Counted from the stretch's first letter, positions 2,174-32,536 are shown. The stretch: DNA of 64,000 nucleotides from Promethearchaeota archaeon (GCA_019894855.1 JAGXNS010000003.1:10024-74023); one strand, 5' to 3'. Program-made: numbers and translations. Notes: generated from the sequence alone by a model not told the origin.

Positions 2174-3952
2174 TTGGAAACCAGAATCACAGAGCAGAAG
2201 AAGGTTATTCTAAATAAACTAATAAATTCAGGGATAAATATTTCTCCTACAATGTTAGATAACATTCTGAACATAAATAATCCGTTGAAAAACTTAAATC
2301 TCCTTATTAAGGAAATAAGTTTTATTCCCTCATTTAAGAGTCACTTAACGGAAACTGTAATAAAAGATATTTCAGACGAAAAACTTCAAAGAGTGCTGAA
2401 ACGCAACATATCTAAAACCAATTCTCTGCTATTACAAGAAGAAACCAAAAACCCCCCCGAATATTCCAATCTTCAACAAGAAGCAGTTACGAGCTCCTTA
2501 ATGGATAAAAAACTCCCATCAGAATTTTCGCCGGTTATTGAAAAATCTAAAACAGAATACAAAAGCCAAGAAACTTCTAATAGAGATCCCTTGCCTAAGC
2601 AAATAACCAAAATGCAAAACACAAAAAAAACTCCAAGATTTGAATCGACCAAATCTATTTTTACATTTAAACCTATTGCTAAAGAATACAAATCTAATTA
2701 CGAAATTATTCAAGATCCTACAAATAATTTATTTACTAATGGAAAATATGAAGATTTTTACGAATTAACGCTTGATAAGTATAATAAGCTTAAAAATCTC
2801 ATCAGAAAACGACCAGAAGTAAGTTCGGCTACCAACATCAATAACATATTTAGGATATCTAGTAGTATTGAAATATCAACACTTGGTTTAGTAGATAAAA
2901 TTCGTCAAACAAAAAAAGGGAATTATCTTTTTACTTTGGAGGATTTAACAGGCAAGATTAGCGTATTGATTCAAAATAATTCGGAGAACTTAGATTCCGT
3001 CAAAATTATAGAAAGAACTCTAAATGATCAGATGGTGTTCGTTAAAGGTTTGTATAATCCTGGTGAACATGGGAGAAAAGGAATAATTTTTGCCTCATAT
3101 ATTTCAAAAATAGATATTCCAACAAATTTTCAGCCTAATTTATCACCCGATCCTCTCTCAATCGCTTTAATTTCCGATATTCACATTGGAAGCAAAGAGT
3201 TTGAAGAAGGCTTATTTACTAAATTTATTGATTTTTTAAACGGTAAAAGTAAAAATAAACTCCTAAGAGAAAAGGCGGGAAGAATAAAGTACTTAGTCAT
3301 TAATGGCGATCTAATTGATGGAATAGGTATATACCCCAACCAACAAGAAGATCTCGTTATCGCAGATATCTACGAACAATTCAAAAAAGCTTCTGATATT
3401 CTTTTAGAAATTCCGGATTATATTAAAATATTTTTTGTATCTGGAAATCACGAACCAGTAAGAAACGCAATACCTCGACCCGCTGTACCAAAGAAATACT
3501 GCGAAGATTTAGTTAGCATGGGAATCAAATGTCTGGGTAACCCTTCTTTAATTAAAACTCATAATGTCAACACACTTATATATCATGGGGAGAGTATGCA
3601 TGATATTAATAGATTAATTCACGATTTAGACATTAATAAACCGATCGAGACCATGAAAGAATTTTTAATAGGTAGACATCTTGCTCCAATGTTTGGGGGA
3701 AAAACGCAAATTGCTCCTGTAAACACAGATCATCTAATAATAGAAAAGATTCCCGATATCTTTCATACAGGACACATACATATAAACGGAATAGGAAAAT
3801 ACAGGAATGTAACTCTCGTAAATTCAGGATGTTTTCAAGCTCAAACTGACTTTATGAAAAGCTTTGGGATAATACCTACTCCCGGTATAGTACCAGTAAT
3901 TGAATTGGATTCTTTAGATTTTTTATCACTCGATTTTAAAAAAATTAATTAA
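2174..3952 (+). CDS. DNA polymerase II (PolD) small subunit DP1 (calcineurin-like phosphoesterase/exonuclease)
   Basis: Phosphoesterase motifs ISDIHIGS, INGDLIDG, VSGNHEP and HTGHIH. Divergent from DP2. TTG start. Confidence 0.85.
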   Translation: METRITEQKKVILNKLINSGINISPTMLDNILNINNPLKNLNLLIKEISFIPSFKSHLTETVIKDISDEKLQRVLKRNISKTNSLLLQEETKNPPEYSNLQQEAVTSSLMDKKLPSEFSPVIEKSKTEYKSQETSNRDPLPKQITKMQNTKKTPRFESTKSIFTFKPIAKEYKSNYEIIQDPTNNLFTNGKYEDFYELTLDKYNKLKNLIRKRPEVSSATNINNIFRISSSIEISTLGLVDKIRQTKKGNYLFTLEDLTGKISVLIQNNSENLDSVKIIERTLNDQMVFVKGLYNPGEHGRKGIIFASYISKIDIPTNFQPNLSPDPLSIALISDIHIGSKEFEEGLFTKFIDFLNGKSKNKLLREKAGRIKYLVINGDLIDGIGIYPNQQEDLVIADIYEQFKKASDILLEIPDYIKIFFVSGNHEPVRNAIPRPAVPKKYCEDLVSMGIKCLGNPSLIKTHNVNTLIYHGESMHDINRLIHDLDINKPIETMKEFLIGRHLAPMFGGKTQIAPVNTDHLIIEKIPDIFHTGHIHINGIGKYRNVTLVNSGCFQAQTDFMKSFGIIPTPGIVPVIELDSLDFLSLDFKKIN

Positions 3953-3986
3953 ATTCTTCTACTTTTAATTGTATTAGGTGCTTTAA

Positions 3987-4661
3987 GTGAATTTTGCGAT
4001 CCCACGTGGCAATACCTCGGAGATGGTTTTACATATTTGGAAAATTATAGTGCTTCCAAGTATGCAACAAGATGATTTTTTGCACCTTATTTCTTTTGAA
4101 CTGTTCCTATTCTCGCCTAAAGAGGCAAATGAATTCATAAATGTAGCCATTCACGAAGGTTATCTAATACTAGAAGGAGATGAGCGAATTAAATTATCAG
4201 AATCTTTAGCTCTTGAGTTAAACAAATGGCATGAAAAGAGAAAAAGGGACATTTTAGAAAAGATAAAAGATGTCAACGATTTCAGGGATGATTCTAAAAA
4301 TAATGATACAAATAAGTTCAAAATTCTATTAAAAGCTCTACTTGATAAAGGAACTATAAATAGAGCAGTAGCAGAATCAGATAGCGCATACAAATTTAGA
4401 ATTATCGATTCTGAACAAAAAATAATTAAAGCTGAAGTTCAAGGTTCTCAAGAGATTCCGTATAACATTGAGATAAACATAAATGAAAAAGAGATAAAAC
4501 ATAATTGCCACGATTTTCGAAATAAAAGAGCAGAAAATAAAAAATTCTGTAAACACTTAGCGAAATTATTTCTCCTCTTAAAAATAAAAAACGCGGATTT
4601 AGCATCGTACTTTCTTGAGAGTATTACCAAAGATATTAATAATTGGAATTTCCTATCTTAA
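3987..4661 (+). CDS. Hypothetical protein, DUF2240-like N-terminal region with a C-terminal SWIM-like zinc-finger remnant
   Basis: The segment FLHLISFELFLFSPKEANEFINVAIHEGYL resembles DUF2240. The C-terminus NCHDF...FCKHLAKLF resembles SWIM CxC...CxH with one Cys missing. The true start may be ATG 4062 (see the hairpin feature). Confidence 0.35.
   Translation: MNFAIPRGNTSEMVLHIWKIIVLPSMQQDDFLHLISFELFLFSPKEANEFINVAIHEGYLILEGDERIKLSESLALELNKWHEKRKRDILEKIKDVNDFRDDSKNNDTNKFKILLKALLDKGTINRAVAESDSAYKFRIIDSEQKIIKAEVQGSQEIPYNIEININEKEIKHNCHDFRNKRAENKKFCKHLAKLFLLLKIKNADLASYFLESITKDINNWNFLS
4032..4064 (+). repeat. 11-bp inverted repeat (hairpin) with an 11-nt loop; its 3' arm contains ATG 4062
   Basis: CATATTTGGAA / AATTATAGTGC / TTCCAAGTATG. 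All 11 positions pair, one as G-U. Confidence 0.6.
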
Positions 4662-5977
4662 ATTAATTTTTTAAACACTACATTCTTTATCTTAACTTTA
4701 TTGGTTTGGAGTATTATCGGTTTATAATTTAATAATCGATACTCTTTTACTTTTTTAATCTGAGACAAAACTCGTTCTATTAATTTAAACTCGATGTCAA
4801 GTTTTACAATTTTCGTTCGACCATAATGACCCATCGATTTTGTTATAGCAGTTATTAATCCTGACAACGCTAATTCATTGATGTAATCACTAATCCTTCT
4901 GTGTGTCAATTGTTTCACATTTGGAATGATTTGTGCCAATTCTGAATGAGCTTCATAAATATCTCCTGAAGTAATTATGTGTTCTTTAGTATATTTTGAC
5001 AATAAAAAGATGGCCGTCAACGTTAGTTTTGCTTGAAGAGGCATCGAAAAGATATATTCAACAATGTGATCTTTATCTATATCTTTTTGAGCTTTTTCTA
5101 CATGATTTTCCATTATTTTTTTAGTTTGGTTTCGTTCTGCAATTTCTCCAGCCTTTCTTAACAACTGAAGAGCTTTTCTCGCATCACCATGTTCTTTTGC
5201 TGCTAGACCTGCACAAAGCTTTATAACTCCATCGTCAATAACGCCTTCTTTAAAAGCTATTTCTGCTCTTAGTTTAAGAATGTCGTAGAGTTGGTTAGCA
5301 TTATAAGGTTTAAAGACAATTGGTTCTTCTTCCTCTAGATTAGATGTAACTCTCGCATCGAGGGATTCTGTGAATTTTAGTTTATTAGATATACCGATAA
5401 CACTCGTTCTACAGTGATCTAAGCTCTCATTTAACCTCGTTAAGTTATATAAGATTTCATTTCCTCCTTTTTTTTCAATCAGAATATCTATTTCATCTAA
5501 TACAAGAAAACAAATGCCATCTTTGATATATTGGTCTAATAAACCTAATAATTTCTTGAGAATTACGTCTTTAGGTAAACCCGTTGATGGAATTTTTTCT
5601 TTACCAACTATCGTATTGTAGATATGAGCTAAGATTCTGTAAGGTGTAGATACTACTGTACAATTAATATATACCCACCAGGGAGGATTGGTGGAATGTT
5701 GGGCAAGTTTTTGTGAAATATACCTTACAGTAGCCGTTTTACCCGTACCAGTCATCCCATAACACAAGAAATTAGGAGGAACATCACCTTTTAAGGCACA
5801 TGCAGTTATACCAGCTATCTTCTCGATCTCTGAATTCCTGTGAGGTAAAACATCAGGAATAAACGACGGTTCGAGAGCTTCTCGGTTTTTAAAAAGTTTC
5901 GGTCCTTTTAAGTAGTTCTGGTAAAATTTATCGATATTGAATGAATACATTCCTTTTTCGTTATGATTAGTCAACAC
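4658..5977 (-). CDS. cdc6: Orc1/Cdc6 replication initiator (AAA+ plus winged helix)
   Basis: Walker A GMTGTGKT, Walker B LVLDEID, GDARKALQLL sensor region, C-terminal winged-helix-like tail. Confidence 0.9.
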   Translation of the reverse strand: MLTNHNEKGMYSFNIDKFYQNYLKGPKLFKNREALEPSFIPDVLPHRNSEIEKIAGITACALKGDVPPNFLCYGMTGTGKTATVRYISQKLAQHSTNPPWWVYINCTVVSTPYRILAHIYNTIVGKEKIPSTGLPKDVILKKLLGLLDQYIKDGICFLVLDEIDILIEKKGGNEILYNLTRLNESLDHCRTSVIGISNKLKFTESLDARVTSNLEEEEPIVFKPYNANQLYDILKLRAEIAFKEGVIDDGVIKLCAGLAAKEHGDARKALQLLRKAGEIAERNQTKKIMENHVEKAQKDIDKDHIVEYIFSMPLQAKLTLTAIFLLSKYTKEHIITSGDIYEAHSELAQIIPNVKQLTHRRISDYINELALSGLITAITKSMGHYGRTKIVKLDIEFKLIERVLSQIKKVKEYRLLNYKPIILQTNKVKIKNVVFKKLI

Positions 5978-9919: not shown

Positions 9920-10519
9920 TTATTTTACTTCAATAAACTTGAGCAAGCCAAGATCGTCTAAATCGTCGATCATTACATCAATCTCTGCCTTTGGAACGCC
10001 AGCCTCCTCTGCTATGTCAGCTACAGTGTGAAATCCATCGGCTAAATGAGCGATTTTATACTGTTCCTTGTTTAAAAAACCCTGAATGATTACTTGGGAA
10101 GGAAGACGTTTTGAAGTCCATGTGGGCTTCTGGTCTTGAACTTTCCGTAAATCTTCCTCCGAAAGCACCATGCCCTTTTTAGTTAGTAGTTTTTGAGATT
10201 TTACGAAGTCTTTTTCATAGATTTTTAAAATAGGTATCTTTATTTGGATTTCTGCTATATGACCGTTTTTTAACATGTCATCCATAATATTTTCAAATCC
10301 TGTGAACAACCTAACATCTCCCGACCAATCCTTCATTTGGTTTCCATACTTATCCAGGAATTTGTCGATAATATCACTTAAAATTTTGTGCGTTATTTTG
10401 GCATCGTCATTCTTGTCAGCAGCTGCTGTGCACAGTATCCCTTCCTTAAAAACAAGAAGGAGATAGAATATTTGCATATCGATGATTTTTAATTCACCTG
10501 ATCCTTTCGAGAACTCCAC
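9920..10519 (-). CDS. Roadblock/longin-like N-domain protein with a C-terminal winged-helix
   Basis: The C-terminus HTVADIAEEAGVPKAEIDVMIDDLDDLGLLKFIE is wHTH-like. The frame stays open and coding-like up to 10657 (..NVYLISNFTGICLIHRKYGTIEFNQDLVSGFLTALKDFS) with no ATG/GTG/TTG there. Confidence 0.4.
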   Translation of the reverse strand: MEFSKGSGELKIIDMQIFYLLLVFKEGILCTAAADKNDDAKITHKILSDIIDKFLDKYGNQMKDWSGDVRLFTGFENIMDDMLKNGHIAEIQIKIPILKIYEKDFVKSQKLLTKKGMVLSEEDLRKVQDQKPTWTSKRLPSQVIIQGFLNKEQYKIAHLADGFHTVADIAEEAGVPKAEIDVMIDDLDDLGLLKFIEVK

Positions 10520-12806: not shown

Positions 12807-13954
12807 GAGATCCAATAATTTTAGAATCTAAAGCACAGACATTTTACGTAAAAAAAGAAGGAATTCCTAAAGGATGTCAACAATGTTTAAAGGGTACTAA
12901 AGCAGTATTATTTCTTAATGGAATCTGTCAGAATCCCAAACATTGCTGGTGGTACTGCCCGATTTCTGAAAAACGAAAAGGTAAGAAAGATACCTATATA
13001 AATGAGATTCAAATATCTTCTAAAGAGCAAATACTCCTCGAACTTAAAGCTATTAATGCGAAAGGGATGAGTATTACGGGCGGAGACCCATTATATGAGC
13101 TCAACTTAAAAAAAACGCTTGAATATATCAAATTCATCAAAGATATTAAAGGAAAAAAGTTTCACATCCACCTTTATACCAACGGTCTTAATTTTAGTAA
13201 AGAAATTGCGGTAAAACTCGCTCGAGCAGGGTTAGACGAAATTAGATTCAACCCATCAAAAGAAAATTGGAACGTGATTAAATACGCATTAAACAATGGT
13301 ATGTCTGTAGGTGCTGAAGTACCTGTGATTCCAGAAGAGGAATATATAGAAAATTTGAAAAAATTCATTTTTTATTTGAACAAAATAGGCGCAGATTTTA
13401 TCAATTTGAATGAATTTGAGTATAGCTTACCAAATAGTCAAAACCTTAAAGACCGAAATTTTAAGTTGGAAGCAGGTACAATAGCATCTGTAAAGAATAG
13501 TAAAGAATGTGCAATGAAGCTCATGCGTGATATCGTTCCAAAAGTTCCAATAAAAATTCATTTTTGTACGATTATAGCTAAGGATTATTGGCAATTGAGA
13601 GAAAGGTACTTAAGACGCGCAAAAACTATTAAATTACGATACGAAGAAATCACGAGAGATGGGTTGTTATTATACGCTTTAATAGAAGGCGAGAAGAAGA
13701 ATATTGAAGAGTTTTGTAATCTTTTATTAAAAGAACTAAAAATCCCACAAAACTTCTTTTCTTACGAAGCAACTACTATTAAATTACCATTAAAGTTTGC
13801 TATGGAAGAATCTTTTATGGATTTACTAATTCAACATAAATTACAAGGATACGTAATAGAAATGACACCGTTTCGAGAAGATAGATATCAACAAATAACG
13901 GAAAAAACACCTATCATGTTATTCAAAGAAGAGATGGGACTAAATGATTATTGA
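12803..13954 (+). CDS. Fe-S/radical-SAM-related protein (pyruvate formate-lyase-activase-related, COG2108-like)
   Basis: Cys cluster CQQC...CQNPKHCWWYCP and GGDPLY. 4-nt overlap with the upstream gene. Confidence 0.45.
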   Translation: MRDPIILESKAQTFYVKKEGIPKGCQQCLKGTKAVLFLNGICQNPKHCWWYCPISEKRKGKKDTYINEIQISSKEQILLELKAINAKGMSITGGDPLYELNLKKTLEYIKFIKDIKGKKFHIHLYTNGLNFSKEIAVKLARAGLDEIRFNPSKENWNVIKYALNNGMSVGAEVPVIPEEEYIENLKKFIFYLNKIGADFINLNEFEYSLPNSQNLKDRNFKLEAGTIASVKNSKECAMKLMRDIVPKVPIKIHFCTIIAKDYWQLRERYLRRAKTIKLRYEEITRDGLLLYALIEGEKKNIEEFCNLLLKELKIPQNFFSYEATTIKLPLKFAMEESFMDLLIQHKLQGYVIEMTPFREDRYQQITEKTPIMLFKEEMGLNDY

Positions 13955-14390
13955 TACCGTCACTCTTAAGGATTTAGATGAAATATACAATTTAGAAAGA
14001 AATTCTTTTAAGAAGGACTCATTTTCTAAAGAATTAATTCTTAATTTAATAATAAAAAACACATATTTTTTTAAGCTCATCGATGACGAATTATCGAACA
14101 GTATTATAGGGTTCATCATTATTATTCAAGATCGAGACGAGAGAGTAAACTTGATTAATTTTTTAATTAGAAAAGGGGAAAGAAAAAGAGGCTATGGGAG
14201 TTTTCTTTTAAGATACACCTTGAAAAAAGTAAAAACATCGGATGAGATAAAAACAATTGTATTGAATGTGAACTCCAAAAATAAAGCTGCTATAAGCTTG
14301 TATGAAAAATTTAATTTTCGAATTGCACAAAGAATAGAAAATTATTATCGGGACAAGCAAAGCGCTTATTTAATGATATTGAACATTTAA
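13944..14390 (+). CDS. GNAT family N-acetyltransferase (RimI/Ard1-like)
   Basis: Acetyl-CoA motif RKRGYGSFLLRY. Typical size. Confidence 0.7.
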   Translation: MIIDTVTLKDLDEIYNLERNSFKKDSFSKELILNLIIKNTYFFKLIDDELSNSIIGFIIIIQDRDERVNLINFLIRKGERKRGYGSFLLRYTLKKVKTSDEIKTIVLNVNSKNKAAISLYEKFNFRIAQRIENYYRDKQSAYLMILNI

Positions 14391-14460
14391 TCATTTTCTA
14401 AAAACCAAGACTTATAAATAAATTCTATTATAAATTGTGTATAGAACGCATTGATAATGT

Positions 14461-14472
14461 GCTTATAAAAGG
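14461..14472 (+). promoter_or_regulatory. TATA-like box upstream of the small ORF 14500..14652
   Basis: GCTTATAAAAGG lies about 30-38 nt upstream of the ATG. Confidence 0.3.
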
Positions 14473-14499
14473 AAACTAAACTAAAAGGTTTGAATTATT

Positions 14500-14652
14500 A
14501 TGTCGTTAGGAAACGAATTAAAAGACGAAATTAAAAAAGGTGTTACTCTCCAAAAGGTTGACGATGAAGACATGAAAAAACGCGAAGAAGAGAAAAAGAA
14601 ACGAATGGAAGAATTAGAAAAAATTAAACAAGCCTTGGGAGCAACAGATTAA
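14500..14652 (+). CDS. 50-aa miniprotein with a WH2/beta-thymosin-like motif
   Basis: Below the ORF-track size cut-off. My translation is MSLGNELKDEIKKGVTLQKVDDEDMKKREEEKKKRMEELEKIKQALGATD. It has its own TATA-like box and is followed by an oligo-T tract. Confidence 0.5.
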   Translation: MSLGNELKDEIKKGVTLQKVDDEDMKKREEEKKKRMEELEKIKQALGATD

Positions 14653-14700
14653 ATTTTACGAGTTTTTGTATTTTTATATTTTTTTTCTTTATTCTTATTT
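14653..14700 (+). terminator. Oligo-T rich putative archaeal terminator
   Basis: ATTTTACGAGTTTTTGTATTTTTATATTTTTTTTCTTT lies immediately after the stop. Confidence 0.3.
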
Positions 14701-14798
14701 AACTCACAATTCCCCAAGCAAGATGCAATTTGAGTGTGTTAAACTTAATTGTTAGGGTTAATTATAAAAATTTAGGAATTTTAAGTTTGAAGTGCCCA

Positions 14799-15872
14799 AT
14801 GAAAATTCTGGATATTGATAAGAAGGAAGAAACCATTTCATTAAGAATCGAAGATTTAAACGATCTATGGACGCTCTATAATACTATTGCCAAAAACGAC
14901 CATGTTACTTCACGAACAAACCGTAGAATCGTTTTAAAAGAAGGTTCTAAAGGAGAAAGAAAACAAATGAAATTGAAACTTAATGTCGATTCTATTGCAT
15001 TCCACGAGTTTTCAAATCGGCTGCGAGTGAAAGGAACTATATTAGAAGGCCCAGAGGATTTTGTTTCGTATGGAACATATCATACGTTTAATATAGAACC
15101 AGGGCAAAAATTAACAATTGAAAAACCTAAGTGGTTAAAAAGCGAGATTAAACGTCTTAGGAAATCGCCTAGATTTCAAACTGATTTTGTCATGCTAATA
15201 GTAGCGATCGAAACAGGGTTGGCTACAATCGCGCTCATAACAAATTATAGTCATAATAGAATAGCTACGGTAAAAAAAAACATCCCAGGTAAAAGATACG
15301 AGCAATCATATCGAAATAAAGCGTATGAAGAATTCTATAATGATATTAGTAGCATAATTAAAGAAAAAATAGAAAGTGTAGACATAAAAATCATTATAAT
15401 ATGTGGTCCAGGGAGCACAAAGGATCACTTAAAACGATATATTAACGAAAAAGCCCAAATAACGAGGTTACCGAAAATCGTAAGCATTCAAGCTAGTTCA
15501 GGAACTGAAAGTGCTATTCTAGAAACTCTTAAATCAAAAGAACTCAAACTCCTTAAGAAAAATGTTAAAATTTTCCTTGAAACCGAGAAAATTGAGGAAA
15601 TTTTTCAGTTATTCAGTACCAATTCTGATTTGATTGCAATTGGATTCGATGAAATCTCGAATGCCATTGAAAAAAGGGCAGTAAAGGAGCTTTTTTGTGC
15701 AGATATTCTTATAAGGGGAGCATCAAAAAAACAGAAATTAAGAATAGAACAATTATTAAACGGTGTAGAATCTCTGGGTGGAGAAATTCATATCTTAAGT
15801 AGCGAACACCCAACAGGGCAACAGATAATTGATTTGGGATCTATTGTTGCCATTTTAAGATTTAAAATTTAA
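14799..15872 (+). CDS. Pelota (Dom34) mRNA surveillance factor
   Basis: MKILDIDKKEETISLRIEDLNDLWTLYN is a typical Pelota N-terminus, with an eRF1-like central and C-terminal part. The track start at 14730 (TTG) is probably an over-extension. Confidence 0.85.
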   Translation: MKILDIDKKEETISLRIEDLNDLWTLYNTIAKNDHVTSRTNRRIVLKEGSKGERKQMKLKLNVDSIAFHEFSNRLRVKGTILEGPEDFVSYGTYHTFNIEPGQKLTIEKPKWLKSEIKRLRKSPRFQTDFVMLIVAIETGLATIALITNYSHNRIATVKKNIPGKRYEQSYRNKAYEEFYNDISSIIKEKIESVDIKIIIICGPGSTKDHLKRYINEKAQITRLPKIVSIQASSGTESAILETLKSKELKLLKKNVKIFLETEKIEEIFQLFSTNSDLIAIGFDEISNAIEKRAVKELFCADILIRGASKKQKLRIEQLLNGVESLGGEIHILSSEHPTGQQIIDLGSIVAILRFKI

Positions 15873-17026: not shown

Positions 17027-17659
17027 TTGATTGTAATGAGTCCAATTATAACGCATGAAGATGAACTTGAATTAGCAAGTATGGAAAAAGAATTAATGAC
17101 CCAAATAAGGAAACTAGCAAAAGCTCAGAGTACTTTAATTGATTCTCAAAAAAAATACGCCGAAAATTTAAAAAAAGCAACACTTACTCGGGAAATGCTA
17201 AATAGAACTTTTAGAGATGTATTGAAACACATGCAAACTCTAGTGCGAGAGAAAAGATCAAATATTAAAGATGAAGAAGTGAAATTATTCCAAGATATCA
17301 TTCACAAAAACGATGGATACATAGAAGTGAACAACAAATATATTGATTCGATTAAGGACATCGCCGTAAAAAAAGACTACTTAGTAGAAAAAAAATACGA
17401 ATTTGCTTCAGCTTTAAACGAAGTAGCAAACAGAAGGAGCGTAGTCATCAAAAAAGCATTATCTGTTGAGAAAAAAAAAAACGATTTAATCGAAGGAGAA
17501 AAAATGAAACTCTTAGAGTCTGGATTGAATGATTCGCAAAGAGATTTTGATCGTGCTCGAGATATTTTATTAAAAAAAATACACCAATTTTTAGAAGTTA
17601 AGAACGAAGTAGATGAACTCTGGGTTAATTTGAAAAATAGCGTTGACAAAGCAAGCTAA
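17027..17659 (+). CDS. Coiled-coil protein, function unknown
   Basis: Heptad-like, K/E-rich helical sequence throughout. Confidence 0.4.
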   Translation: MIVMSPIITHEDELELASMEKELMTQIRKLAKAQSTLIDSQKKYAENLKKATLTREMLNRTFRDVLKHMQTLVREKRSNIKDEEVKLFQDIIHKNDGYIEVNNKYIDSIKDIAVKKDYLVEKKYEFASALNEVANRRSVVIKKALSVEKKKNDLIEGEKMKLLESGLNDSQRDFDRARDILLKKIHQFLEVKNEVDELWVNLKNSVDKAS

Positions 17660-17790: not shown

Positions 17791-18231
17791 ATGGCAGAAG
17801 AATTCGCAAATTTCATGCAAGAAACAAAAAAGGCTCCATTAGAAGAAAAACTAAACGCCTTTGGAGACATTGTTGAAAGAATGATGTCTGTAATTCTAAA
17901 AATACCCGATTTAGTAGATCAGTCTTTAGCTTCTGTAAATCAAAAAATATCCACATTGGAATCACGATTTAATACAATTAACAATGAAGTATCATCACTA
18001 CGGACCAAAGGCGGTGGGATATCCCCCGTAATCGCTTCACCTTCTTCTCCAAGCAGCGCACCACCACCTTCTGGAGGTCCACCCGGAGGTCCACCCGGAG
18101 GTCCACCGCCACCACCTGGGGGTCCACCTGGGGGTCCAGGAGCTGCTCGTCCAGCTAGCCCTGTGAGCTTAAGAGGTGCGATAATGGGTGAATTAAAGCA
18201 ACTTTTTTCTAAGAGAAATCAATCGGGATAG
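17791..18231 (+). CDS. Coiled-coil / poly-proline / C-terminal amphipathic helix protein
   Basis: N-terminal helix (VNQKISTLESRFNTINNEVSSL), then SAPPPSGGPPGGPPGGPPPPPGGPPGGPG, then SLRGAIMGELKQLFSKR. Confidence 0.6.
   Translation: MAEEFANFMQETKKAPLEEKLNAFGDIVERMMSVILKIPDLVDQSLASVNQKISTLESRFNTINNEVSSLRTKGGGISPVIASPSSPSSAPPPSGGPPGGPPGGPPPPPGGPPGGPGAARPASPVSLRGAIMGELKQLFSKRNQSG
18073..18141 (+). repeat. Tandem 12-nt GGAGGTCCACCC-type repeats (coding GGPP), a GC-rich island
   Basis: ggaggtccaccc x3 (the last with one change), then gggggtccacct and gggggtccagga. Confidence 0.85.
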
Positions 18232-21216: not shown

Positions 21217-22317
21217 ATGGAACATACGAATTTGTCATTAGAATATGATAAGAGCTTGATAGAAAGGGTTTTGGACGATCTCGATATGAGATACATTATT
21301 ATGTTTTTATATGTTATCAGAAATGACTTGTTTAAAGACTTAAAGGATTCAAAAATTATAGAATCCTATGAGAGAGTCATTATCTTAGACGAAATATTTA
21401 AAAATAACGTATTTAACTTATGGGAAGAAAATTTTATTGATATAGCGATCGATTTAGGCTTGTTTAAAAATATTCGTAGTATTAGAGAATTTAATCATAA
21501 TGATGGGGATTTTATAATACGATTAGGAGAAGAAACAATTACAATCGAGAACGACAAAATATCAGTTCCAGACCATACTCTTTTCTTAATGATAAATAAA
21601 AAATTTAAATTTCTTACAAGAAGAAATTATAATTTAGCATTGATTAAATTAAAGGGAGTCAAATGTCAGAATAGTAATCTTATTCATCCATTTATATCTC
21701 AAATAGGAGAAAACGATTACACAATATCCGATGATATATACTACATATTAGATCAATTTGGCAACGTTTATCAAGCAATCAAAATTGAGATCACAATCGA
21801 AGGGGTTCACCAGAAATTTTTAGATATAAAAGAAAAAATTAACGAGTATATAGATATCTTTGAACCAAAATTAAGGAGTAAACCCGTTTTAAAAAAAATT
21901 TTTGAAGCGATTAAGGGTGAGAAAGATGTTTTTAAATATCTGAGGGATGAAAAAATTGAACTTCCTGATAAGTTCAACTTTGATGAAGATACAGAGAGGA
22001 ACGAAATTGGCAACGATTGGCATTTTAGAGTGATGGCAATACTGAACGCTAGGTTTAGGATGGAACAACTCGACGAGAAAATATTAGAAACCAAAAAATA
22101 TTATTCTGGAAAAGACAAAAAGTTTAGTTATCTTGAATTTATTGAAAAAGTTTCATTTAACGAAGATAATATAGTAAACAAAATTCAAAATGTTCTACTT
22201 AAATTTAGAGAGGATTTAATAAAAATTAATAAAGAACTTGAAGTATTAACGAAGAAAGAATTAAAATTATTAAATTTAGATTATGAACGGTATTTAATTA
22301 CAAGAAGTGATGATTAA
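21217..22317 (+). CDS. Hypothetical protein (gene 1 of an 8-gene cluster)
   Basis: Long ORF with no recognisable motifs. Confidence 0.4.
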   Translation: MEHTNLSLEYDKSLIERVLDDLDMRYIIMFLYVIRNDLFKDLKDSKIIESYERVIILDEIFKNNVFNLWEENFIDIAIDLGLFKNIRSIREFNHNDGDFIIRLGEETITIENDKISVPDHTLFLMINKKFKFLTRRNYNLALIKLKGVKCQNSNLIHPFISQIGENDYTISDDIYYILDQFGNVYQAIKIEITIEGVHQKFLDIKEKINEYIDIFEPKLRSKPVLKKIFEAIKGEKDVFKYLRDEKIELPDKFNFDEDTERNEIGNDWHFRVMAILNARFRMEQLDEKILETKKYYSGKDKKFSYLEFIEKVSFNEDNIVNKIQNVLLKFREDLIKINKELEVLTKKELKLLNLDYERYLITRSDD

Positions 22318-22319
22318 AT

Positions 22320-23276
22320 TTGAAGTGTTCAGCGTGTAACATCGAAATGGAACCTTTGGTTTCTGGAATTTACCAATGTCCTCAATGTCGAAAAATTGTA
22401 AAAAAAAAAGACGAAAAAGCTGAACTTGAAGATATAAAAAAGGTAGAAAAAGGAAAATTTCTCGAAGGAGAATATTTTCATAATATCGCAAGTATAAATA
22501 AAAAATACGAAGTGTGCGAACAAGGTATTATAATAAGCAAAACTGAAACTCGTTTATTTGCTGCGTTAATCTGTCATAGTGCTTATTTAAGAGAAGAAAA
22601 ATACGTGAGACTCTCATGGTGGAAAAGTTTTCAGCATGCTGGCATGTTTAAAATCTATGAAAAAGATGTATTAAATAACCTAATAGTCACATTAGAAAAA
22701 ATTAATAAGGATTTTGACGATATTTGGACTTGGGGCGGAACATATGTAAAACAAGAACCTAAAACCAAAGATGCACTAGAGAAGGAAAAATACTTAGACT
22801 TAATAAAATTCAGGATTTTAGAACATCGAACTTGCCCAAAATGTCAAAAAAAAATGACAAAAAAGAAATCTCATTACGAATGTCAACATTGTGGTGAAAT
22901 AGTTATACTGGAGGGGTATAATCAACCAATTTTTAACATACAATCATCAGAGTTGGATTTGCGTTTTCAAACTAATTTCCCAATCAATTATTACTTACCA
23001 GTAAGCGGTATAACTGTGAAGTGGTTAATGGGGGAGTGGAAAGCACTAGCGGTTATTCACGCTAAAGATAATCCTAATAAGCGATGGCTAAGATTTTATT
23101 GGTGGATGCGAGACTTAAGCAGTCTATTAAAGTACGGGCAGAGAGAAATAGGTGAAGGAATCCAAATGGGCTGGAAAGCCCAAAAGGGCGTAGCGTCTCC
23201 TAATATTTATGATAAAAAACTTGTAACGCCATTAATCAATGCCTTAAAGAGAATAAAACAAGAGTTAAATTGGTGA
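22320..23276 (+). CDS. Hypothetical protein with an internally duplicated zinc-ribbon plus WW-motif module
   Basis: CSAC..CPQC then ..ALICHSAY..YVRLSWWKS. This is repeated as CPKC..CQHC then ..ALAVIHAK..WLRFYWWMR. Confidence 0.45.
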   Translation: MKCSACNIEMEPLVSGIYQCPQCRKIVKKKDEKAELEDIKKVEKGKFLEGEYFHNIASINKKYEVCEQGIIISKTETRLFAALICHSAYLREEKYVRLSWWKSFQHAGMFKIYEKDVLNNLIVTLEKINKDFDDIWTWGGTYVKQEPKTKDALEKEKYLDLIKFRILEHRTCPKCQKKMTKKKSHYECQHCGEIVILEGYNQPIFNIQSSELDLRFQTNFPINYYLPVSGITVKWLMGEWKALAVIHAKDNPNKRWLRFYWWMRDLSSLLKYGQREIGEGIQMGWKAQKGVASPNIYDKKLVTPLINALKRIKQELNW

Positions 23277-23301
23277 AACTGAAAAAAACCATACCATTAA
23301 G

Positions 23302-24450
23302 GTGAACAAAATGGAAAGAAATCAAGAAAGCACTTGGCATGAACTGCTTCAAGACTTCGAGAGGGGCTTAGAAAAAGCTATTGATGAACTCGAAAAACGA
23401 GATGTGGAAAACATACCTGGTGCAAAGGAAGCTTTAAAACAAAGGTTAAAGAATATGAAGCTTCATTTTCCTAAAAATAATGGTGAAATTTTCTTAAAAT
23501 CCATTGACGACAAAATTCAAAACGCGTTTTTCCCAAACACAAACGATTTTTCTGAAGCATTTCAAAAGATAATAAAATCTCGTACTCACGAACAGGATTT
23601 TATCATAAACGAGCTGTTAAACGGATTTGTGGCATCAAAAGCCAAAGCTGTTGCTACGGGAACTCAAGGACCTGTAATTGATAGAATGGTTGAAGCTTTT
23701 AGTAAAAGAAATGATTTTCATATTATTGATTATCAATTTTATGCTATGTTTGGAGACCCAAATAAGCCTCGACACTATATTAAAAGCCAACTTGAAGAGT
23801 TAGTTAAATTATTTGGTCTCGTGTCAAAAGAATTAATTATCGAAAAAGATGTTAGAAAAAGTGAAGAAAAAATATTCACTTTTTACACTTTTCCGGAAAA
23901 AATTATTAAAATACTTGAAAAGAAATATTTAATCCTAGACGAAAAACTAGGATATACGTACGTTTCTGAAGCATTTGATAGAAATGTATTCATATGTATG
24001 TTCTTAGCAAATGTGGCCATTAATAGGGATGATTTAGATAAGATTGGTGGATCTTATACATTGAATGGTATCTCAGCCATTTTTGCATTAATTCTGCTGT
24101 TAAGTTTTTTACCTAAATTATCAGTAGATGAAACAAACCCCATCCTTAACGATCCTAATTACGATGCAGATACTATGAGTGTAATACCTAAATCTTGGAT
24201 GATGAGACAAGTTTTAGAACCGTTGTTCGAACCTTTAATTAAAATCATTGCTTACAGATTAGGGGGCGGTTTATGGTTGTCTAAAATAATTGAATCAGAT
24301 ATTAATAAAAAAATCCATAATCAAATACGTTTTTTGATTAAAGATGTCAATAAATGGGTTCTCGGTCAACTCGTAAGAGTAGAAATACCAATTTTCGTAG
24401 AAATTTCGAATATATTCACAGAAATCATAGTGGGCTACGATGAAAGTTAA
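23302..24450 (+). CDS. Hypothetical protein
   Basis: Long ORF with one hydrophobic segment (ISAIFALILLLSFL). The likely start is ATG 23311. Confidence 0.4.
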   Translation: MNKMERNQESTWHELLQDFERGLEKAIDELEKRDVENIPGAKEALKQRLKNMKLHFPKNNGEIFLKSIDDKIQNAFFPNTNDFSEAFQKIIKSRTHEQDFIINELLNGFVASKAKAVATGTQGPVIDRMVEAFSKRNDFHIIDYQFYAMFGDPNKPRHYIKSQLEELVKLFGLVSKELIIEKDVRKSEEKIFTFYTFPEKIIKILEKKYLILDEKLGYTYVSEAFDRNVFICMFLANVAINRDDLDKIGGSYTLNGISAIFALILLLSFLPKLSVDETNPILNDPNYDADTMSVIPKSWMMRQVLEPLFEPLIKIIAYRLGGGLWLSKIIESDINKKIHNQIRFLIKDVNKWVLGQLVRVEIPIFVEISNIFTEIIVGYDES

Positions 24451-24467
24451 TAGCAATGATAAATTGA

Positions 24468-25784
24468 GTGAGAATTATGAGTTATAAAAAAAAATCGACA
24501 AGGAATGTTAGGCCTGGGAGAAAAAGGGAGAAATGGACCGATATCTTACCAAGGTACCTTACGTTTTTAACTCATATGCGCCCAATTCTAAGAGAAACAA
24601 GAAGGATAATAATTGATTTGGATGCTGACCTTCTTTTAGATACAGAAATTCTAGACAAAATCCGAGAAGAGGAAGAAAAACGAAACTTTAGAAAAGTGAG
24701 AGCTTTATCAGAATTTTCCGCAATGTACAGGTCAAACATATATGAAATTATTAAAGATTTCTTAGTTAAATATAGGAATCAAATACCTATTTTTGATATT
24801 AAAGATTATATTATTGAATTCTTATACGAATCAGTCGGGGCTCTCAATGTTTTGTTACACATCACTAATCCAGACGAAGCAAATTTAGAAAACACAATTT
24901 TATATGTTTTAGTTAAATTTATTGAAGAACGGCTCTTCCCGAGAGGTAGAAATTTAAGCATTATATATAGTAAATTATTAGGTTATTCTTCAGATTTGTA
25001 CGATTGTCAAAGACATATGCTCCAACCACATACTTATTATCGAGAAAAATTAGAATCCTCTGATTTGTTTGAAATTCCGGGAATTTCCCCTAAAGTTTAT
25101 AATATCATTAATAATATAACCTCACTCTTTAATTTGGATCCGAATTTCGGAGAATTCCCTGAAAGAGAAAATCAAGAACTGCCAATAATATTAAAATCTG
25201 AAGTATTCGATCCATATATTGATTCTATAGCAAATGCAGAAGAAGAAGCTATCGAACAAATTTCTGAACGATTCGGATTGCGAATAATAGACGGAATTTT
25301 TCTGGTTCCAAGAGAGGGCTTAGTAGATTTACTAACAGAAAATAATTTTTTACGAAAAAATTCACAATCAGATGGAAAAGTACGATTAATACCACAACTA
25401 AGCAATGAAAGCTTGTTTCTCTATTATTTAGCTTTCTCATCCCAGCGAAGAGGATTTTTATCGAAGGAATTAATAAATTGGATTTCAATGAATTTTGCTT
25501 TTTTGATTTATATGGGTATATTGAAGTGGAAATTGTCAGACCAAAACATTTTCTATCCTATCTTTAAGGATTTACAAACAAATGAGAAGATTTTACCTTA
25601 TTTGATGAAGCTTCTCTGTTTTCCCAACTATCTAGGTATTGATAAAATGAAAATACGTGATTCTCCGCAATACAGAAAAGAAATTTTTAACTTCATTGGT
25701 TCTCAAATCGATAACCTTAAAGATTTTATCTTAGAAATAGCAGAATTTTGTGAAAAATTTGATAAACAAAGAAAAAATAACTAA
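24468..25784 (+). CDS. Hypothetical protein
   Basis: Long ORF with a basic N-terminus (KKKSTRNVRPGRKREK). The likely start is ATG 24477. Confidence 0.4.
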   Translation: MRIMSYKKKSTRNVRPGRKREKWTDILPRYLTFLTHMRPILRETRRIIIDLDADLLLDTEILDKIREEEEKRNFRKVRALSEFSAMYRSNIYEIIKDFLVKYRNQIPIFDIKDYIIEFLYESVGALNVLLHITNPDEANLENTILYVLVKFIEERLFPRGRNLSIIYSKLLGYSSDLYDCQRHMLQPHTYYREKLESSDLFEIPGISPKVYNIINNITSLFNLDPNFGEFPERENQELPIILKSEVFDPYIDSIANAEEEAIEQISERFGLRIIDGIFLVPREGLVDLLTENNFLRKNSQSDGKVRLIPQLSNESLFLYYLAFSSQRRGFLSKELINWISMNFAFLIYMGILKWKLSDQNIFYPIFKDLQTNEKILPYLMKLLCFPNYLGIDKMKIRDSPQYRKEIFNFIGSQIDNLKDFILEIAEFCEKFDKQRKNN

Positions 25785-25809
25785 ATTAGAATAAAAAGAG
25801 AAGAGAAAA

Positions 25810-26919
25810 ATGAGCAATTCAAAAGAAGATGGAGGCAAGAACATAACTTTCACTGAAGATGTCATTAAAAATAGGTTAGGCAAATATGGCGCGGTGTATT
25901 TTCCTTCCACAATACAAGAATCAATCGATGATATTCTAGGTAATGAGAACAAAAAAGAAATTTTACACGATTTCTTTAAAGCTTTGAAGAAATACTATGA
26001 ATTTAGTAAACGATTAAAAGGTGCAAAACTCAACCCTAGTTTGACTGTTCTCTTGTATGGTCCTCCAGGTACAGGTAAAACTTCTCTTACGAGAGGGTTT
26101 GCAAAACATTACGATATTCCAATATGCGTAGTAGAAACGGATAGGTTAGTTTCTCCTTTGCTAGGAGATACGATAAAACAAATTAGGAATGTTGTGGATC
26201 TTGCGGCAGAAATAGCAAAGGAACGAGGTAATTTTATCCTATTCTTTGATGAAATAGATTCTATAGGCTCCGAAAGGTCAAATATTCATGAAGTAGGTGA
26301 GATCAAACGAGCTGTTATTTCATTTTTACAAGTAATTGATAGAATAAATTATGAAGGAGTACCCTTAGCAATATTTGGGGCTACAAATCATCAAAATCAA
26401 TTAGATTCAGCGATTTGGAGGCGGTTCACGTTTCACTTTAGCTTTGAATTCCCAGATTATCATCTGAGAAGAAAAATAATTGAATCGTTCCTTGCAAAAG
26501 TTAAAATTGCGAAAATTGGTGTTGATGACTCAATTTACTCAAATTTAACAGAAGAATACGAGAAGATTCAAAAGATACATAGTAATCTTTCACATAAACT
26601 AGGATATGAAATTTCCGAGTTTAGTGATACTCTACTTTGGGATGAAATTAATAAAAATAATAAAAACGAAGGATTGTTAGAGCTCACAATAGGATTTTCA
26701 GGCTCAGATATTGAAAGAGGAACAAAGGTTTCACTTTTAAAAGCTATTAACACAGAGCGATTAACTTACGATTTATTTTACAATTCTTTAAAATTAGTGG
26801 GAGGGACCGCTATGCATGTTGAAAGACAAGATAATTTAAGCGATTCAAAGAAAATTTTTTTAAAATCTTCGAAAAATAAGCAGGAAAAACGCAATATGAA
26901 AGGTCCTCCAGAGATCTAA
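25810..26919 (+). CDS. Classical-clade AAA ATPase (single AAA domain)
   Basis: Walker A LLYGPPGTGKTS, Walker B ILFFDEIDS, second region of homology GATNHQNQLDSAIWRRF. Confidence 0.85.
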   Translation: MSNSKEDGGKNITFTEDVIKNRLGKYGAVYFPSTIQESIDDILGNENKKEILHDFFKALKKYYEFSKRLKGAKLNPSLTVLLYGPPGTGKTSLTRGFAKHYDIPICVVETDRLVSPLLGDTIKQIRNVVDLAAEIAKERGNFILFFDEIDSIGSERSNIHEVGEIKRAVISFLQVIDRINYEGVPLAIFGATNHQNQLDSAIWRRFTFHFSFEFPDYHLRRKIIESFLAKVKIAKIGVDDSIYSNLTEEYEKIQKIHSNLSHKLGYEISEFSDTLLWDEINKNNKNEGLLELTIGFSGSDIERGTKVSLLKAINTERLTYDLFYNSLKLVGGTAMHVERQDNLSDSKKIFLKSSKNKQEKRNMKGPPEI

Positions 26920-26966
26920 TACATTTTTTTTAATTACTTAATAAAAGATTTAATTTACTTGATAAA

Positions 26967-28001
26967 ATGGAAACAGAACTATTTAACCTTGAAAAGATAA
27001 AGGGGCTAACCGCACCCATTAAAAATTTACAAGGAAAGGTCAACCAGGTATCAAACCTCGTAAAAAATTTAGAATCTGAGCAACAGATTGCTTCATTATA
27101 CGACGAAAACGATTCATTTTTAAAAGATTTCACACAATTAACTAAATTAGTAGAGAAAATCAACGATAATTTAAAGATTGTCTCAAACCACAACATTAAC
27201 AAATTTTTAAAGTTGAAAAACTATTTAATCAATAAATACAAGCAATCGATTAATGATAGACTGAAAATCATTGATTTGGACAATGACTATCTAACACAGA
27301 TTGGCCTTTCTTTAATTGAAAATAAAAAAATTAGTAAAATAATTGAAAAAATTAACCACGTTCCTTCTGTTAGCATTAAACAATGGCTTGATTTAATAGA
27401 TTCTTTAAATCAGAACACCCTTTTTCTAAAATCTGTTGACATTCTGAGAGAACACTATAAAATAAATTTACAGAACAAATTAAAAAAGGAACTGGCTAAA
27501 ATACCCTATAATGTAGAACCTTTCATAATCGAAGATTTTAAAAGACAGTTTCATATTACACCCGAGATAAACTACACTAAATTCATTCAATCGCTTGAAC
27601 ATAAACTGACTGAAGAAGAATTAAAATCGAAGAAAGAAATCTTGGAAAAAAACAAAAAAAGACAAGAAATTGAAGAACTAAAAAAACGACAAGAAGAGCA
27701 ATCAGAATCTTACGAGAGTTATTTAAAATTATCTAATAAAGAATTCAAAAGAATGTTGCGAAAACAGAAGCGTGAAAAATTAACTGACATTAATGATACG
27801 GAAAACGATAAAACATTTGAAATAACAGAAGAAATCTCTCAAAAAATCGAGATGTTTAAAAAACAAATGGATAAAAGATCTAATGAACATCACGTTACTC
27901 TCGGTGATTCCAGTGCAGACCCAATAGAATTAATTAAGGAAAGAAAAAGAAAAAGAAAAGAAGAATATGACAAATTTAAGGATCATTTTGAAAGTGATTA
28001 A
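26967..28001 (+). CDS. Coiled-coil, highly charged hypothetical protein
   Basis: K/E-rich helical repeats (KKRQEIEELKKRQEEQ, KERKRKRKEEYDKFK). Confidence 0.4.
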   Translation: METELFNLEKIKGLTAPIKNLQGKVNQVSNLVKNLESEQQIASLYDENDSFLKDFTQLTKLVEKINDNLKIVSNHNINKFLKLKNYLINKYKQSINDRLKIIDLDNDYLTQIGLSLIENKKISKIIEKINHVPSVSIKQWLDLIDSLNQNTLFLKSVDILREHYKINLQNKLKKELAKIPYNVEPFIIEDFKRQFHITPEINYTKFIQSLEHKLTEEELKSKKEILEKNKKRQEIEELKKRQEEQSESYESYLKLSNKEFKRMLRKQKREKLTDINDTENDKTFEITEEISQKIEMFKKQMDKRSNEHHVTLGDSSADPIELIKERKRKRKEEYDKFKDHFESD

Positions 28002-28014
28002 ATATTAAAGCGGA

Positions 28015-29640: not shown

Positions 29641-30161
29641 TGAGAGATCAAATGGAAGCTGTGAATTTTGAAGAAATAGTGAAAAATATTGCTAAAATTA
29701 TTCTAACAAGCCCCCAAAAAATGATTAGAGAAGAAGATCTCCTGATTTTAACTAAGAACTTGGATTTTGAGCAGGTGATAAACGCTGTTTATTCAAATTT
29801 AAAAAATGTAGGGTTTGAATTTATTAAATCGAAGTTCTTAGATCAAAATTATTACATTTTAACTTCTGAAGGAAAAGATGATAGAGTTACTCCATCACAA
29901 TACGGAACTCTCGTCCTAATCCTTGCGCTTAGCAAAGAATTGGATGATAATTTAGACATGGATGACCTAAAAGATATTTTTAAAGAAGTATGGAATACTG
30001 ATATGAAATTTTTAATCGAAAACGATTATTTAAGGAAAATCGAAGATCAAAATATATTAAAAATAACGCCATTAGGAAAAGCGCTATTAAAAAATATAAT
30101 TAAAGATATTGAATTAAAAAACCTATTGGAAGCCTTTAAAAGAAAAAAAGAAACAGCATAA
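29637..30161 (+). CDS. Tandem winged-helix protein (ScpB/KITE- or Vps25-like architecture)
   Basis: Two WH-like halves (IAKIILTSPQKMIREEDLL...NYYILTSE and YGTLVLILALSK...ILKITPLGKALL). ATGA overlap with the upstream SMC-like gene. Confidence 0.35.
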   Translation: MMRDQMEAVNFEEIVKNIAKIILTSPQKMIREEDLLILTKNLDFEQVINAVYSNLKNVGFEFIKSKFLDQNYYILTSEGKDDRVTPSQYGTLVLILALSKELDDNLDMDDLKDIFKEVWNTDMKFLIENDYLRKIEDQNILKITPLGKALLKNIIKDIELKNLLEAFKRKKETA

Positions 30162-32350: not shown

Positions 32351-32536
32351 GGATTATACCTATAGCGTTGGAAAATACTAATTATTATTTATTGCTTTCT
32401 TTTCCTACATTTTTCTATATCTATTCTAAATAACCTTTGATCCTTCATATTTTTTTTTAAAATTTCTTATCACTCTCAAAACAAGATTGGACTTTAAAGG
32501 AATTAAACTAAATAATTATTGTTTTATCATTTATGT

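Follow-up and report, generated by a model that had tools for sequence, protein, structure and literature searches.

An ORF of only 50 amino acids, lying on the forward strand of the 64,000-nucleotide stretch of archaeal DNA that we analyzed (the window), raises two questions: whether so short an ORF is a gene at all, and whether its product could be an actin-monomer-binding protein of the WH2 or beta-thymosin type. An earlier note on this DNA, which comes from a Promethearchaeota archaeon (Promethearchaeota being NCBI's present phylum name), leaned to the affirmative on both and took the ORF to look like a discrete transcription unit. The translation given there, from an ATG start to a TAA stop, was reproduced exactly in our analysis. 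G+C makes up about 30% of the window. The positions of all elements discussed below are collected in Table 1.

We looked for homologues of the 50-aa protein by a word-seeded search of 5.8 billion proteins and found 230 matches; the 120 listed are 48 to 52 aa long and 70 to 98% identical to it, and 22 contigs carry an identical protein. Those homologues that come with an organism name are all Asgard, with MAG labels of Loki-, Hod-, Hermod-, Thor- or Sigynarchaeota or of Promethearchaeota. When we scanned one genome per GTDB species for the locus, the small ORF was located in at least 44 loci, all from Asgard MAGs save for one contig filed as a Nanopelagicaceae MAG. That 62-kb contig (L017, DATKTW010000134.1, 'Candidatus Nanopelagicaceae bacterium') holds the whole Asgard gene block, with proteins about 85 to 94% identical to those of the window, and is evidently mis-binned Asgard DNA.

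The pattern of substitution is that of a coding sequence. We compared 28 distinct DNA sequences over a core of 42 codons that aligns without gaps: variable columns numbered 19, 14, and 41 at codon positions 1, 2, and 3, third positions being nearly saturated, and codon differences were synonymous in 4884 cases versus 2763 nonsynonymous. The small protein is also conserved more strongly than the proteins of its neighbors: in locus L025 it is 91% identical, versus 44% for the GNAT-family acetyltransferase upstream and 64% for Pelota downstream. An Rfam scan of positions 13900 to 15000 gave noise and no match. We conclude that the ORF is a real gene under purifying selection. The automatic names attached to its homologues ('multidrug resistance efflux pump', 'H-NS', and 'spermidine/putrescine-binding protein') are mutually inconsistent labels for a K/E-rich peptide, and we set them aside.

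The signals around the gene are conserved as well, although not all of those that had been proposed. In the earlier note the gene was credited with a TATA-like box shortly upstream of its start codon; this sequence, TTATAAAA in the window, is replaced even in close relatives by TCATAAAA, TCAAAAAA, or CCAAAAAA, and the box is probably not the promoter. A second block farther upstream, by comparison, hardly varies: when the upstream regions of the window and of ten close relatives were aligned with MAFFT, 27 of its 29 columns were identical, and it is likely the promoter of the small gene. Because this block is kept and the box is not, the gene seems to own a promoter, and the description of a discrete transcription unit looks right even though its promoter element differs from the one named. 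Of 29 distinct flanks, 19 carry an SD-like tetramer (GGTG, AGGT, GAGG, or GGAG) at 4 to 20 nt 5' of the ATG; its usual form in relatives is AAAAGGT(G)TTGA. The oligo-T tract that had been noticed after the stop codon is present, and tracts of five or more T residues occur within 50 nt past the stop in all 29 distinct relatives; since the region is AT-rich, such tracts are weak evidence of a terminator. A scan for sigma-70 promoters and intrinsic terminators was set aside as not informative for an archaeon.

Table 1. Elements of the small gene and its product, in coordinates of the window
Feature	Position	Strand	Basis or remark
Conserved upstream block CTAAAAACCAAGACTTATAAATAAATTCT with TATA-like TTATAAAT	14396..14424	+	MAFFT of upstream regions; likely promoter
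TATA-like box of the earlier note	14461..14472	+	In window, not kept in close relatives
SD-like element AAAAGGTTTGA	14483..14493	+	About 7-18 nt 5' of ATG
50-aa CDS MSLGNELKDEIKKGVTLQKVDDEDMKKREEEKKKRMEELEKIKQALGATD	14500..14652	+	Stop codon included; translation checked
WH2-like segment, residues 3-21	14506..14562	+	hhalign, AF2, conservation
LQKV, counterpart of the WH2 LKKV/LKKT core	14548..14559	+	Alignments, including HMMER to N-WASP LKKV
Charged C-terminal helix, residues 22-45, E/R/K type	14563..14634	+	AF2, conservation
Oligo-T tracts T5, T5, T8 past the stop	14663..14686	+	Read from sequence; archaeal terminator-like

Gene order around the small ORF is fixed. All of the at least 44 loci listed read CutA1, a 270-aa protein, a nucleotidyltransferase, a radical SAM protein, the RimI-type GNAT, the small ORF, and Pelota, followed by a further radical SAM protein, a 207-aa coiled-coil protein, and a 146-aa poly-proline protein. 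The GNAT and Pelota genes are thus the immediate flanks in every one of these species-level loci, and the order GNAT-small ORF-Pelota is kept even around a divergent orthologue (P0150). Together with the same-length homologues, this fixed order in at least 44 Asgard genomes bears out the conservation on which the earlier proposal had been made to depend. The neighbors in the window are housekeeping genes (RimI-type acetyltransferase, Pelota, radical-SAM enzymes, RtcB, archease, and Cdc6/Orc1), and we found no actin, profilin, or gelsolin gene near the ORF; the link to actin developed below is one of domain architecture elsewhere in the family and not of neighbors in the window.

Two further observations concern these surroundings. 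The upstream GNAT gene (13944-14390, + strand) encodes a RimI-type N-terminal acetyltransferase (TIGR01575, 77 bits versus a cut-off of 86) and has an 11-nt overlap with the stop of the radical-SAM gene before it; that the N-termini of the small protein (MS-, MTP-, MAP-) are typical substrates of such an enzyme is pure speculation. There is also a second group of orthologues, with a canonical LKKV (P0139 and P0140; loci L055 and L058), whose genes are divergent from a pair encoding a MoxR-type AAA_3 ATPase and a VWA protein, with a Roc/Arf-type GTPase gene close by.

What kind of protein does the gene encode? Structure prediction with AF2 from the family alignment (pLDDT 81) gives a helix at residues 5 to 13, a loop at 14 to 21, and a long helix at 22 to 45, the last with a pLDDT of 89 to 93. 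The first part, the WH2-like segment, consists of an amphipathic helix (L3, L7, I11), then G14, and then L17-Q18-K19-V20-D21; paralogous family members have LKKV where the window protein has LQKV. The second part is a charged helix that ends in an amphipathic stretch, RMEELEKIKQAL. Among 37 close members, I11, K13, G14, V15, L17, R28, E29, K34, R35, E38, K41, A45, L46, and G47 are invariant. In a wider alignment of 79 family sequences, which includes representatives at 50% identity, position 3 is L, I, or M, and the N-terminal half keeps L7 (94%), I11 (92%), G14 (96%), L17 (100%), K19 (88%), and V20 (81%), while the C-terminal half keeps K34 (96%), R35 (100%), E38 (100%), L39 (96%), and L46 (95%). 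Conservation in the family is highest in the charged helix, to which nothing in WH2 corresponds; P0150 and similarly divergent syntenic orthologues keep this helix better than the N-terminal motif. As aligned, the conserved N-terminal positions L7, I11, G14, L17, K19, and V20 are exactly the hallmark positions of WH2: the predicted amphipathic helix carries the conserved hydrophobic residues L7 and I11, and G14 is followed by LQKV at a fixed spacing that falls on the N-WASP and Spire cores in HMMER and hhalign alignments. A Foldseek search of the AF2 model against the PDB gave 0 matches, which is no surprise for so short a helical peptide.

We then asked how well this correspondence is backed by scores. 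Pfam reported neither WH2 (PF02205) nor Thymosin (PF01290) on the 50-aa protein at E<=10, and NCBIfam gave no match. The Pfam WH2 gathering threshold is 23.1 bits, which the protein does not reach, and among its 37 close members the model was reported for 1, at E 0.059. Divergent family members score higher: P0147 passes at 23.7 bits, and P0142 (from a Sigynarchaeota MAG), P0136, and P0180 reach 16.5, 14.1, and 13.4 bits. P0147 sits on a contig of 797 bp with 55% G+C. An HMM built from a hand-entered set of nine canonical WH2 sequences (from WASP, N-WASP, WAVE1/2, WIP, MIM, Vrp1, and VASP) ranks the ORF first of 1085 six-frame segments of the window; at 5.6 bits and E 0.77, the ORF as a single sequence is not significant.

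At the level of profiles there is a modest resemblance. The family alignment matched the same nine hand-entered sequences in hhalign over residues 5 to 24, with a score of 21.4, a P of 7e-5, and a probability of 61-63%. When the columns of the family alignment were shuffled 300 times, the scores had a mean of 8.4 (sd 2.1) and 1 of the 300 reached the real score, and the match is therefore not due to composition. We also searched family profiles against 177,635 PDB sequences. The family profile listed a construct of triple N-WASP WH2 with actin first (3m3n_W, E 1.5e-4), along with 2vcp_D (N-WASP WH2) and 2d1k_C (MIM WH2), and a profile of the divergent members again listed 3m3n_W first (4.6e-4), with a Spire WH2 construct second (3mn7_S, 4.4e-3). 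These whole-sequence E-values are significant because near-identical repeats are summed; per repeat they are 7-98 and singly non-significant. For calibration, a Pfam-certified WH2 protein (P0164) matches the same PDB chains at 8e-8 and 0.033.

An exhaustive HMMER profile scan of 1.84 billion representative proteins found 62 at E<1e-3, all of them family members except P0164, P0165, and P0182, and these three are WH2 or thymosin-repeat-like proteins. Two of them pass Pfam WH2 (P0164 at 45.8 bits and P0182 at 25.8 bits). P0192, which belongs to the P0182 cluster, is encoded on a Tara Oceans contig with few genes and probably comes from a eukaryote. Support from the profiles for WH2 likeness is thus consistently positive and modest, and we regard the resemblance of the small protein to WH2 as real but weak by sequence. 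The residue-by-residue line-up drawn in the earlier note is upheld insofar as hhalign reproduces it beyond mere K/E composition, although Pfam WH2 stays silent on the window protein. Neither of the two sequence-based outcomes that the note named as refutations, absence of the ORF from relatives and a likeness of K/E composition only, was observed.

Other families fared differently. The note had also called the protein beta-thymosin-like, and in architecture this is apt: it is a stand-alone protein of 50 aa with a predicted helix-LxKV-helix layout, the second helix spanning residues 22 to 45. Its sequence, by comparison, shows no detectable relatedness, the core reading LQKVDD and not LKKTET. 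With no Pfam Thymosin match and an hhalign probability of 0.9% for the family against three beta-thymosins, we rejected kinship. DUF3006 (PF11213) scored 13.9 bits on the 50-aa protein against a gathering threshold of 32.3 and was sub-threshold in 22 of 37 members (best E-values 2.8e-4 and 4.1e-4), the match spanning model positions 26-65 of 67 only. The H-NS N-terminal coiled coil (H-NS_N) was sub-threshold in 9 of 41 members, with a best E of 1.3e-4. Both thus appear in more members than WH2 does, and both were rejected as partial matches, under their cut-offs and centered on the charged helix.

The link to actin comes from proteins in which the unit is repeated or fused, in all of which the C-terminal charged helix is kept. 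In P0146, P0151, and P0172, a unit of about 40 aa follows an N-terminal domain of about 130 aa that resembles Asgard profilin. Pfam Profilin is sub-threshold on two of these domains (P0146, E 2.5e-4; P0151, E 1.5e-3) and absent from P0172, but a profile of the three sequences matched the PDB entries 5zza_P (5e-13), 5yed_A (8e-12), and 5zzb_A (2e-11), which we take to be the structures of Loki and Odin profilins deposited by Akil and Robinson (2018), as well as 7pbh_A, 'Profilin' (7e-11). In these fusions the profilin domain is followed by 1-4 complete 40-aa units and then by a conserved C-terminal domain (CTD; TDYIYDDFQLL...). They are rare, forming 3 clusters at 50% identity, and one MAG (locus-tag prefix ACTSUE) has a single-unit protein alongside a four-unit profilin fusion. 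Head-to-tail arrays with a period of about 45-50 aa occur as well, of 8 units in P0124 and 4 units in P0179. In P0160, P0161, and P0177 the unit follows a leucine-rich repeat (LRR) domain; in P0163 it is joined to a segment that by eye is a putative ribbon-helix-helix (RHH); P0160 has sub-threshold Pfam matches to DUF6290 and NikA-like (RHH-type) families past its unit; and Zn-ribbon domains, too, are among those fused to the unit. The WH2-type pattern recurs in the repeated units, as in LLGEITSETPRLKKID, LMDEIHSIPTLQKIS, and LIDFFKKGGKLEKPD. The profilin fusions, tandem arrays, and LRR-unit proteins all support a role that involves actin.

The CTD of the profilin fusions deserves a remark of its own. 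This domain of about 50 aa (..TDYIYDDFQLLxVKxxIExLIKKEF..) is present in P0146, P0151, P0172, P0148, and P0171 (locus L008 and others), and also in proteins that consist of a unit and the CTD alone. Neither Pfam nor NCBIfam matches it, and it may be an oligomerization domain. An AF2 model of the profilin-unit-CTD fusion P0172, made from a 7-sequence alignment, had a pLDDT of 46 and was unusable.

Considering these results together, we regard the small protein as a probable WH2-like module with putative actin-binding function. More specifically, we find it somewhat likely that it is the cytosolic, single-unit founder of an Asgard-specific family and binds Asgard actin (lokiactin) monomers as a WH2 domain does; actin binding, the binding site, and the effect on polymerization are what we infer here. 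Helix 5-13 would sit in the barbed-face cleft of actin and end at G14, and L17-Q18-K19-V20 would lie extended along the actin surface, like the LKKV/T of WH2 domains. The acidic DDED and helix 22-45 would then extend along the same actin and form a thymosin-like sequestering cap or, alternatively, serve as a rigid spacer to the next subunit. A single unit would buffer actin monomers or hand them over, while arrays of 4-8 units and profilin-unit-CTD fusions would gather several monomers and could nucleate filaments. Against this reading stand the weak scores of the single sequence, the lead in conservation of a charged helix foreign to WH2, the larger number of members with sub-threshold DUF3006 and H-NS_N matches than with WH2 matches, and the lack of cytoskeletal genes nearby.

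A first alternative, which we judge unlikely, is that the unit works as an adaptor whose partner is not actin, for instance as a ligand or regulator of Asgard profilin or of another cytoskeletal or signaling protein, and that its likeness to WH2 is convergent, a matter of a short amphipathic helix and a basic patch. The range of fusion partners would suit it, since a unit joined to profilin, LRR, ribbon-helix-helix, and Zn-ribbon domains is a promiscuous module, and so would the fact that the C-terminal helix, and not the WH2-like part, is conserved best. Loki and Odin profilins, moreover, did not bind VASP polyproline (PMC8410842). The conserved N-terminal positions, however, match the actin-contacting positions of WH2 one for one, WH2 repeats come closest to the family among sequences that are not members of it, and tandem arrays suit binding to the subunit of a polymer.

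It is also improbable, to a like degree, that the product is simply a small, highly charged helical protein with a coincidental likeness to WH2: a coiled coil, a single alpha-helix, or a nucleic-acid or ribosome factor tied to Pelota and the RimI-type acetyltransferase. Such a protein would be in keeping with the K/E/R-rich sequence, with the sub-threshold H-NS and DUF3006 matches, with the insignificant WH2 score of the single sequence, and with the invariance of the GNAT-small ORF-Pelota order in at least 44 genomes and in a divergent archaeon. Adjacency to Pelota and the GNAT says little, however, because unrelated housekeeping genes (CutA1, RtcB, and radical SAM) are part of the conserved block as well, and the second orthologue group lies elsewhere, beside MoxR and VWA genes. 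Pfam and NCBIfam yielded no match to a ribosomal or translation family, the fusion partner is profilin and not a translation factor, and the column-shuffle control opposes a compositional origin of the WH2 match. That the ORF arose by chance in AT-rich intergenic DNA, as its length below the usual gene-calling cut-offs might suggest, is scarcely credible and already refuted by conservation, given the codon-position pattern with its excess of synonymous differences, the 230 homologues of one length class, the conserved SD-like element and promoter block, and the absence of an Rfam match.

If the WH2-like reading is correct, how does the Asgard unit relate to known actin-binding systems? With WH2 domains (PF02205; WASP, N-WASP, WAVE, WIP, MIM, Spire) it shares an identical spacing, L-x3-I-x2-G-x2-L-x-K-V, as well as acidic residues past the core, as in WAVE, and a modular use, alone, in tandem, or beside profilin-related or proline-rich elements. 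It differs from them in being archaeal, and the window protein scores under the Pfam threshold and has Q for K/R at the second core position. Every occurrence of the motif in the Asgard family, moreover, comes with a conserved charged helix of about 25 residues, which makes for a repeat unit of about 40-45 aa versus 17-30 in WH2. By these sequence features the family is distinct from WH2 proper, a family of its own with an obligatory second helix. Beta-thymosins such as thymosin beta-4 are likewise stand-alone proteins of about 45-50 aa, in which an LxKx core at 17-20 separates the N-terminal helix from a second one, and this helix-LxKx-helix layout is that of an actin-monomer sequesterer; the small protein, by contrast, has no LKKTET, and its C-terminal helix is longer and of the E/R/K type.

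The repeated and fused forms have counterparts of their own. P0124 and P0179 are head-to-tail arrays like the tandem-WH2 nucleators (Spire, Cordon-bleu, and Vibrio VopL/VopF), although their period is longer, at about 45-50 aa, and they are at most candidate nucleators. In VopL, WH2 repeats are followed by a dimerization domain, an arrangement that profilin-(unit)n-CTD recalls. Leiomodin and tropomodulin have an LRR and then WH2, and P0160, P0161, and P0177 likewise have an LRR and then the unit, a likeness of architecture at the level of the LRR class. A trypanosomatid profilin combines profilin and a WH2-like element in one polypeptide, as the Asgard fusions do, but there the motif is inserted within the profilin fold, whereas the Asgard proteins have 1-4 complete units past the profilin domain (PMC10907219). 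Within Asgard archaea themselves, gelsolins have WH2-like central motifs of four residues, LRRV, LKHV, LVDV, and LKDV (PMC7444086, PMC9433394, bioRxiv 10.1101/2025.11.30.690169), whose contact with actin has been seen crystallographically (PMC7444086, PMC9433394); Loki actins, for their part, conserve the actin residue Asp25 (PMC9433394). These motifs come from the same organisms as the small protein and presumably share an LxxV-type actin contact with it, but they are four residues in a linker past a gelsolin domain, with neither a separate gene nor a module of helix plus LKKV.

Published work credits only profilins and gelsolins as regulators of Asgard actin (PMC12050087; bioRxiv 10.1101/2025.11.30.690169), and within the literature that we searched, neither reviews nor recent primary papers mention a stand-alone Asgard protein of the WH2 type. 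The earlier statement that no WH2-type regulators are known for archaeal actin therefore holds for a stand-alone protein, although not for the four-residue motifs already published for gelsolins (PMC7444086, PMC9433394). A broader proposal, that Asgard archaea hold an undescribed, ancestral WH2-type module for binding G-actin, in the form of stand-alone 50-aa proteins, arrays of 4-8 units, and profilin fusions, we advance tentatively, as a possibility a shade under even in our estimate. To our knowledge, the invention of WH2 domains is credited to eukaryotes, from which bacterial effectors later borrowed them. A conserved Asgard family that bears the WH2 signature, with profilin fusions in some genomes and Spire- or Cobl-like arrays in others, would backdate the origin of WH2, and control of actin monomers by WH2-type elements, possibly with filament nucleation, would then predate eukaryogenesis. 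The family would supply concrete candidates for sequestering as well as nucleating factors, its arrays and profilin fusions being candidates for the missing actin nucleators of Asgard archaea.

Several other genes of the window merit mention. The 146-aa poly-proline protein (17791-18231, + strand), whose gene is always three genes downstream of the small ORF, begins with about 75 aa of helical character, followed by an S/P/A-rich linker and a (GGPP)n/PPPPP tract, and closes with a C-terminus that hardly varies (consensus RPASPVSLRGAIMGELKQLFxKR). Its 222 homologues are all annotated as hypothetical, and those with an organism name are all from Asgard MAGs. A motif from its C-terminus, SLRxxIMGE(L/I)K, directly precedes units like the small protein in P0160, P0161, P0163, P0177, and P0178, which are the LRR and RHH fusion proteins. 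In architecture, poly-Pro together with an amphipathic helix recalls factors of the WASP/VASP type, and we compared the C-terminal motif RGAIMGELKQLF with a WH2 helix, RGALLDQIRQGI; the hhalign match was not significant (P 0.026, probability 1.9%), and this candidate was rejected. Polyproline motifs of Asgard proteins have been noted in general terms only (PMC8410842). Directly upstream of the poly-proline gene in all of the at least 44 genomes lies the gene for the 207-aa predicted coiled-coil protein (17036-17659, + strand), which has a weak match to Syntaxin_2 (E 0.03) and to no other family.

Elsewhere in the window, a 199-aa protein (9920-10519, - strand) gave weak matches of the Longin-like (E 4.8e-4) and the winged-helix (E 3.4e-4) type and may be a protein of the eukaryotic-signature type. 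A PolD small-subunit-like protein (DNA_pol_E_B/Metallophos) and Cdc6/Orc1 are encoded on opposite strands at 2174-5977, and a replication origin may lie nearby. Nine co-directional ORFs at 21217-30161 (+ strand) have an operon-like look and almost all are without a Pfam match, the exceptions being an AAA ATPase (25810-26919) and a double zinc ribbon (22320-23276). Finally, two adjoining proteins (31451-33496, - strand) have N-terminal AN1-type zinc fingers, in one of them together with a peptidase M50 segment.
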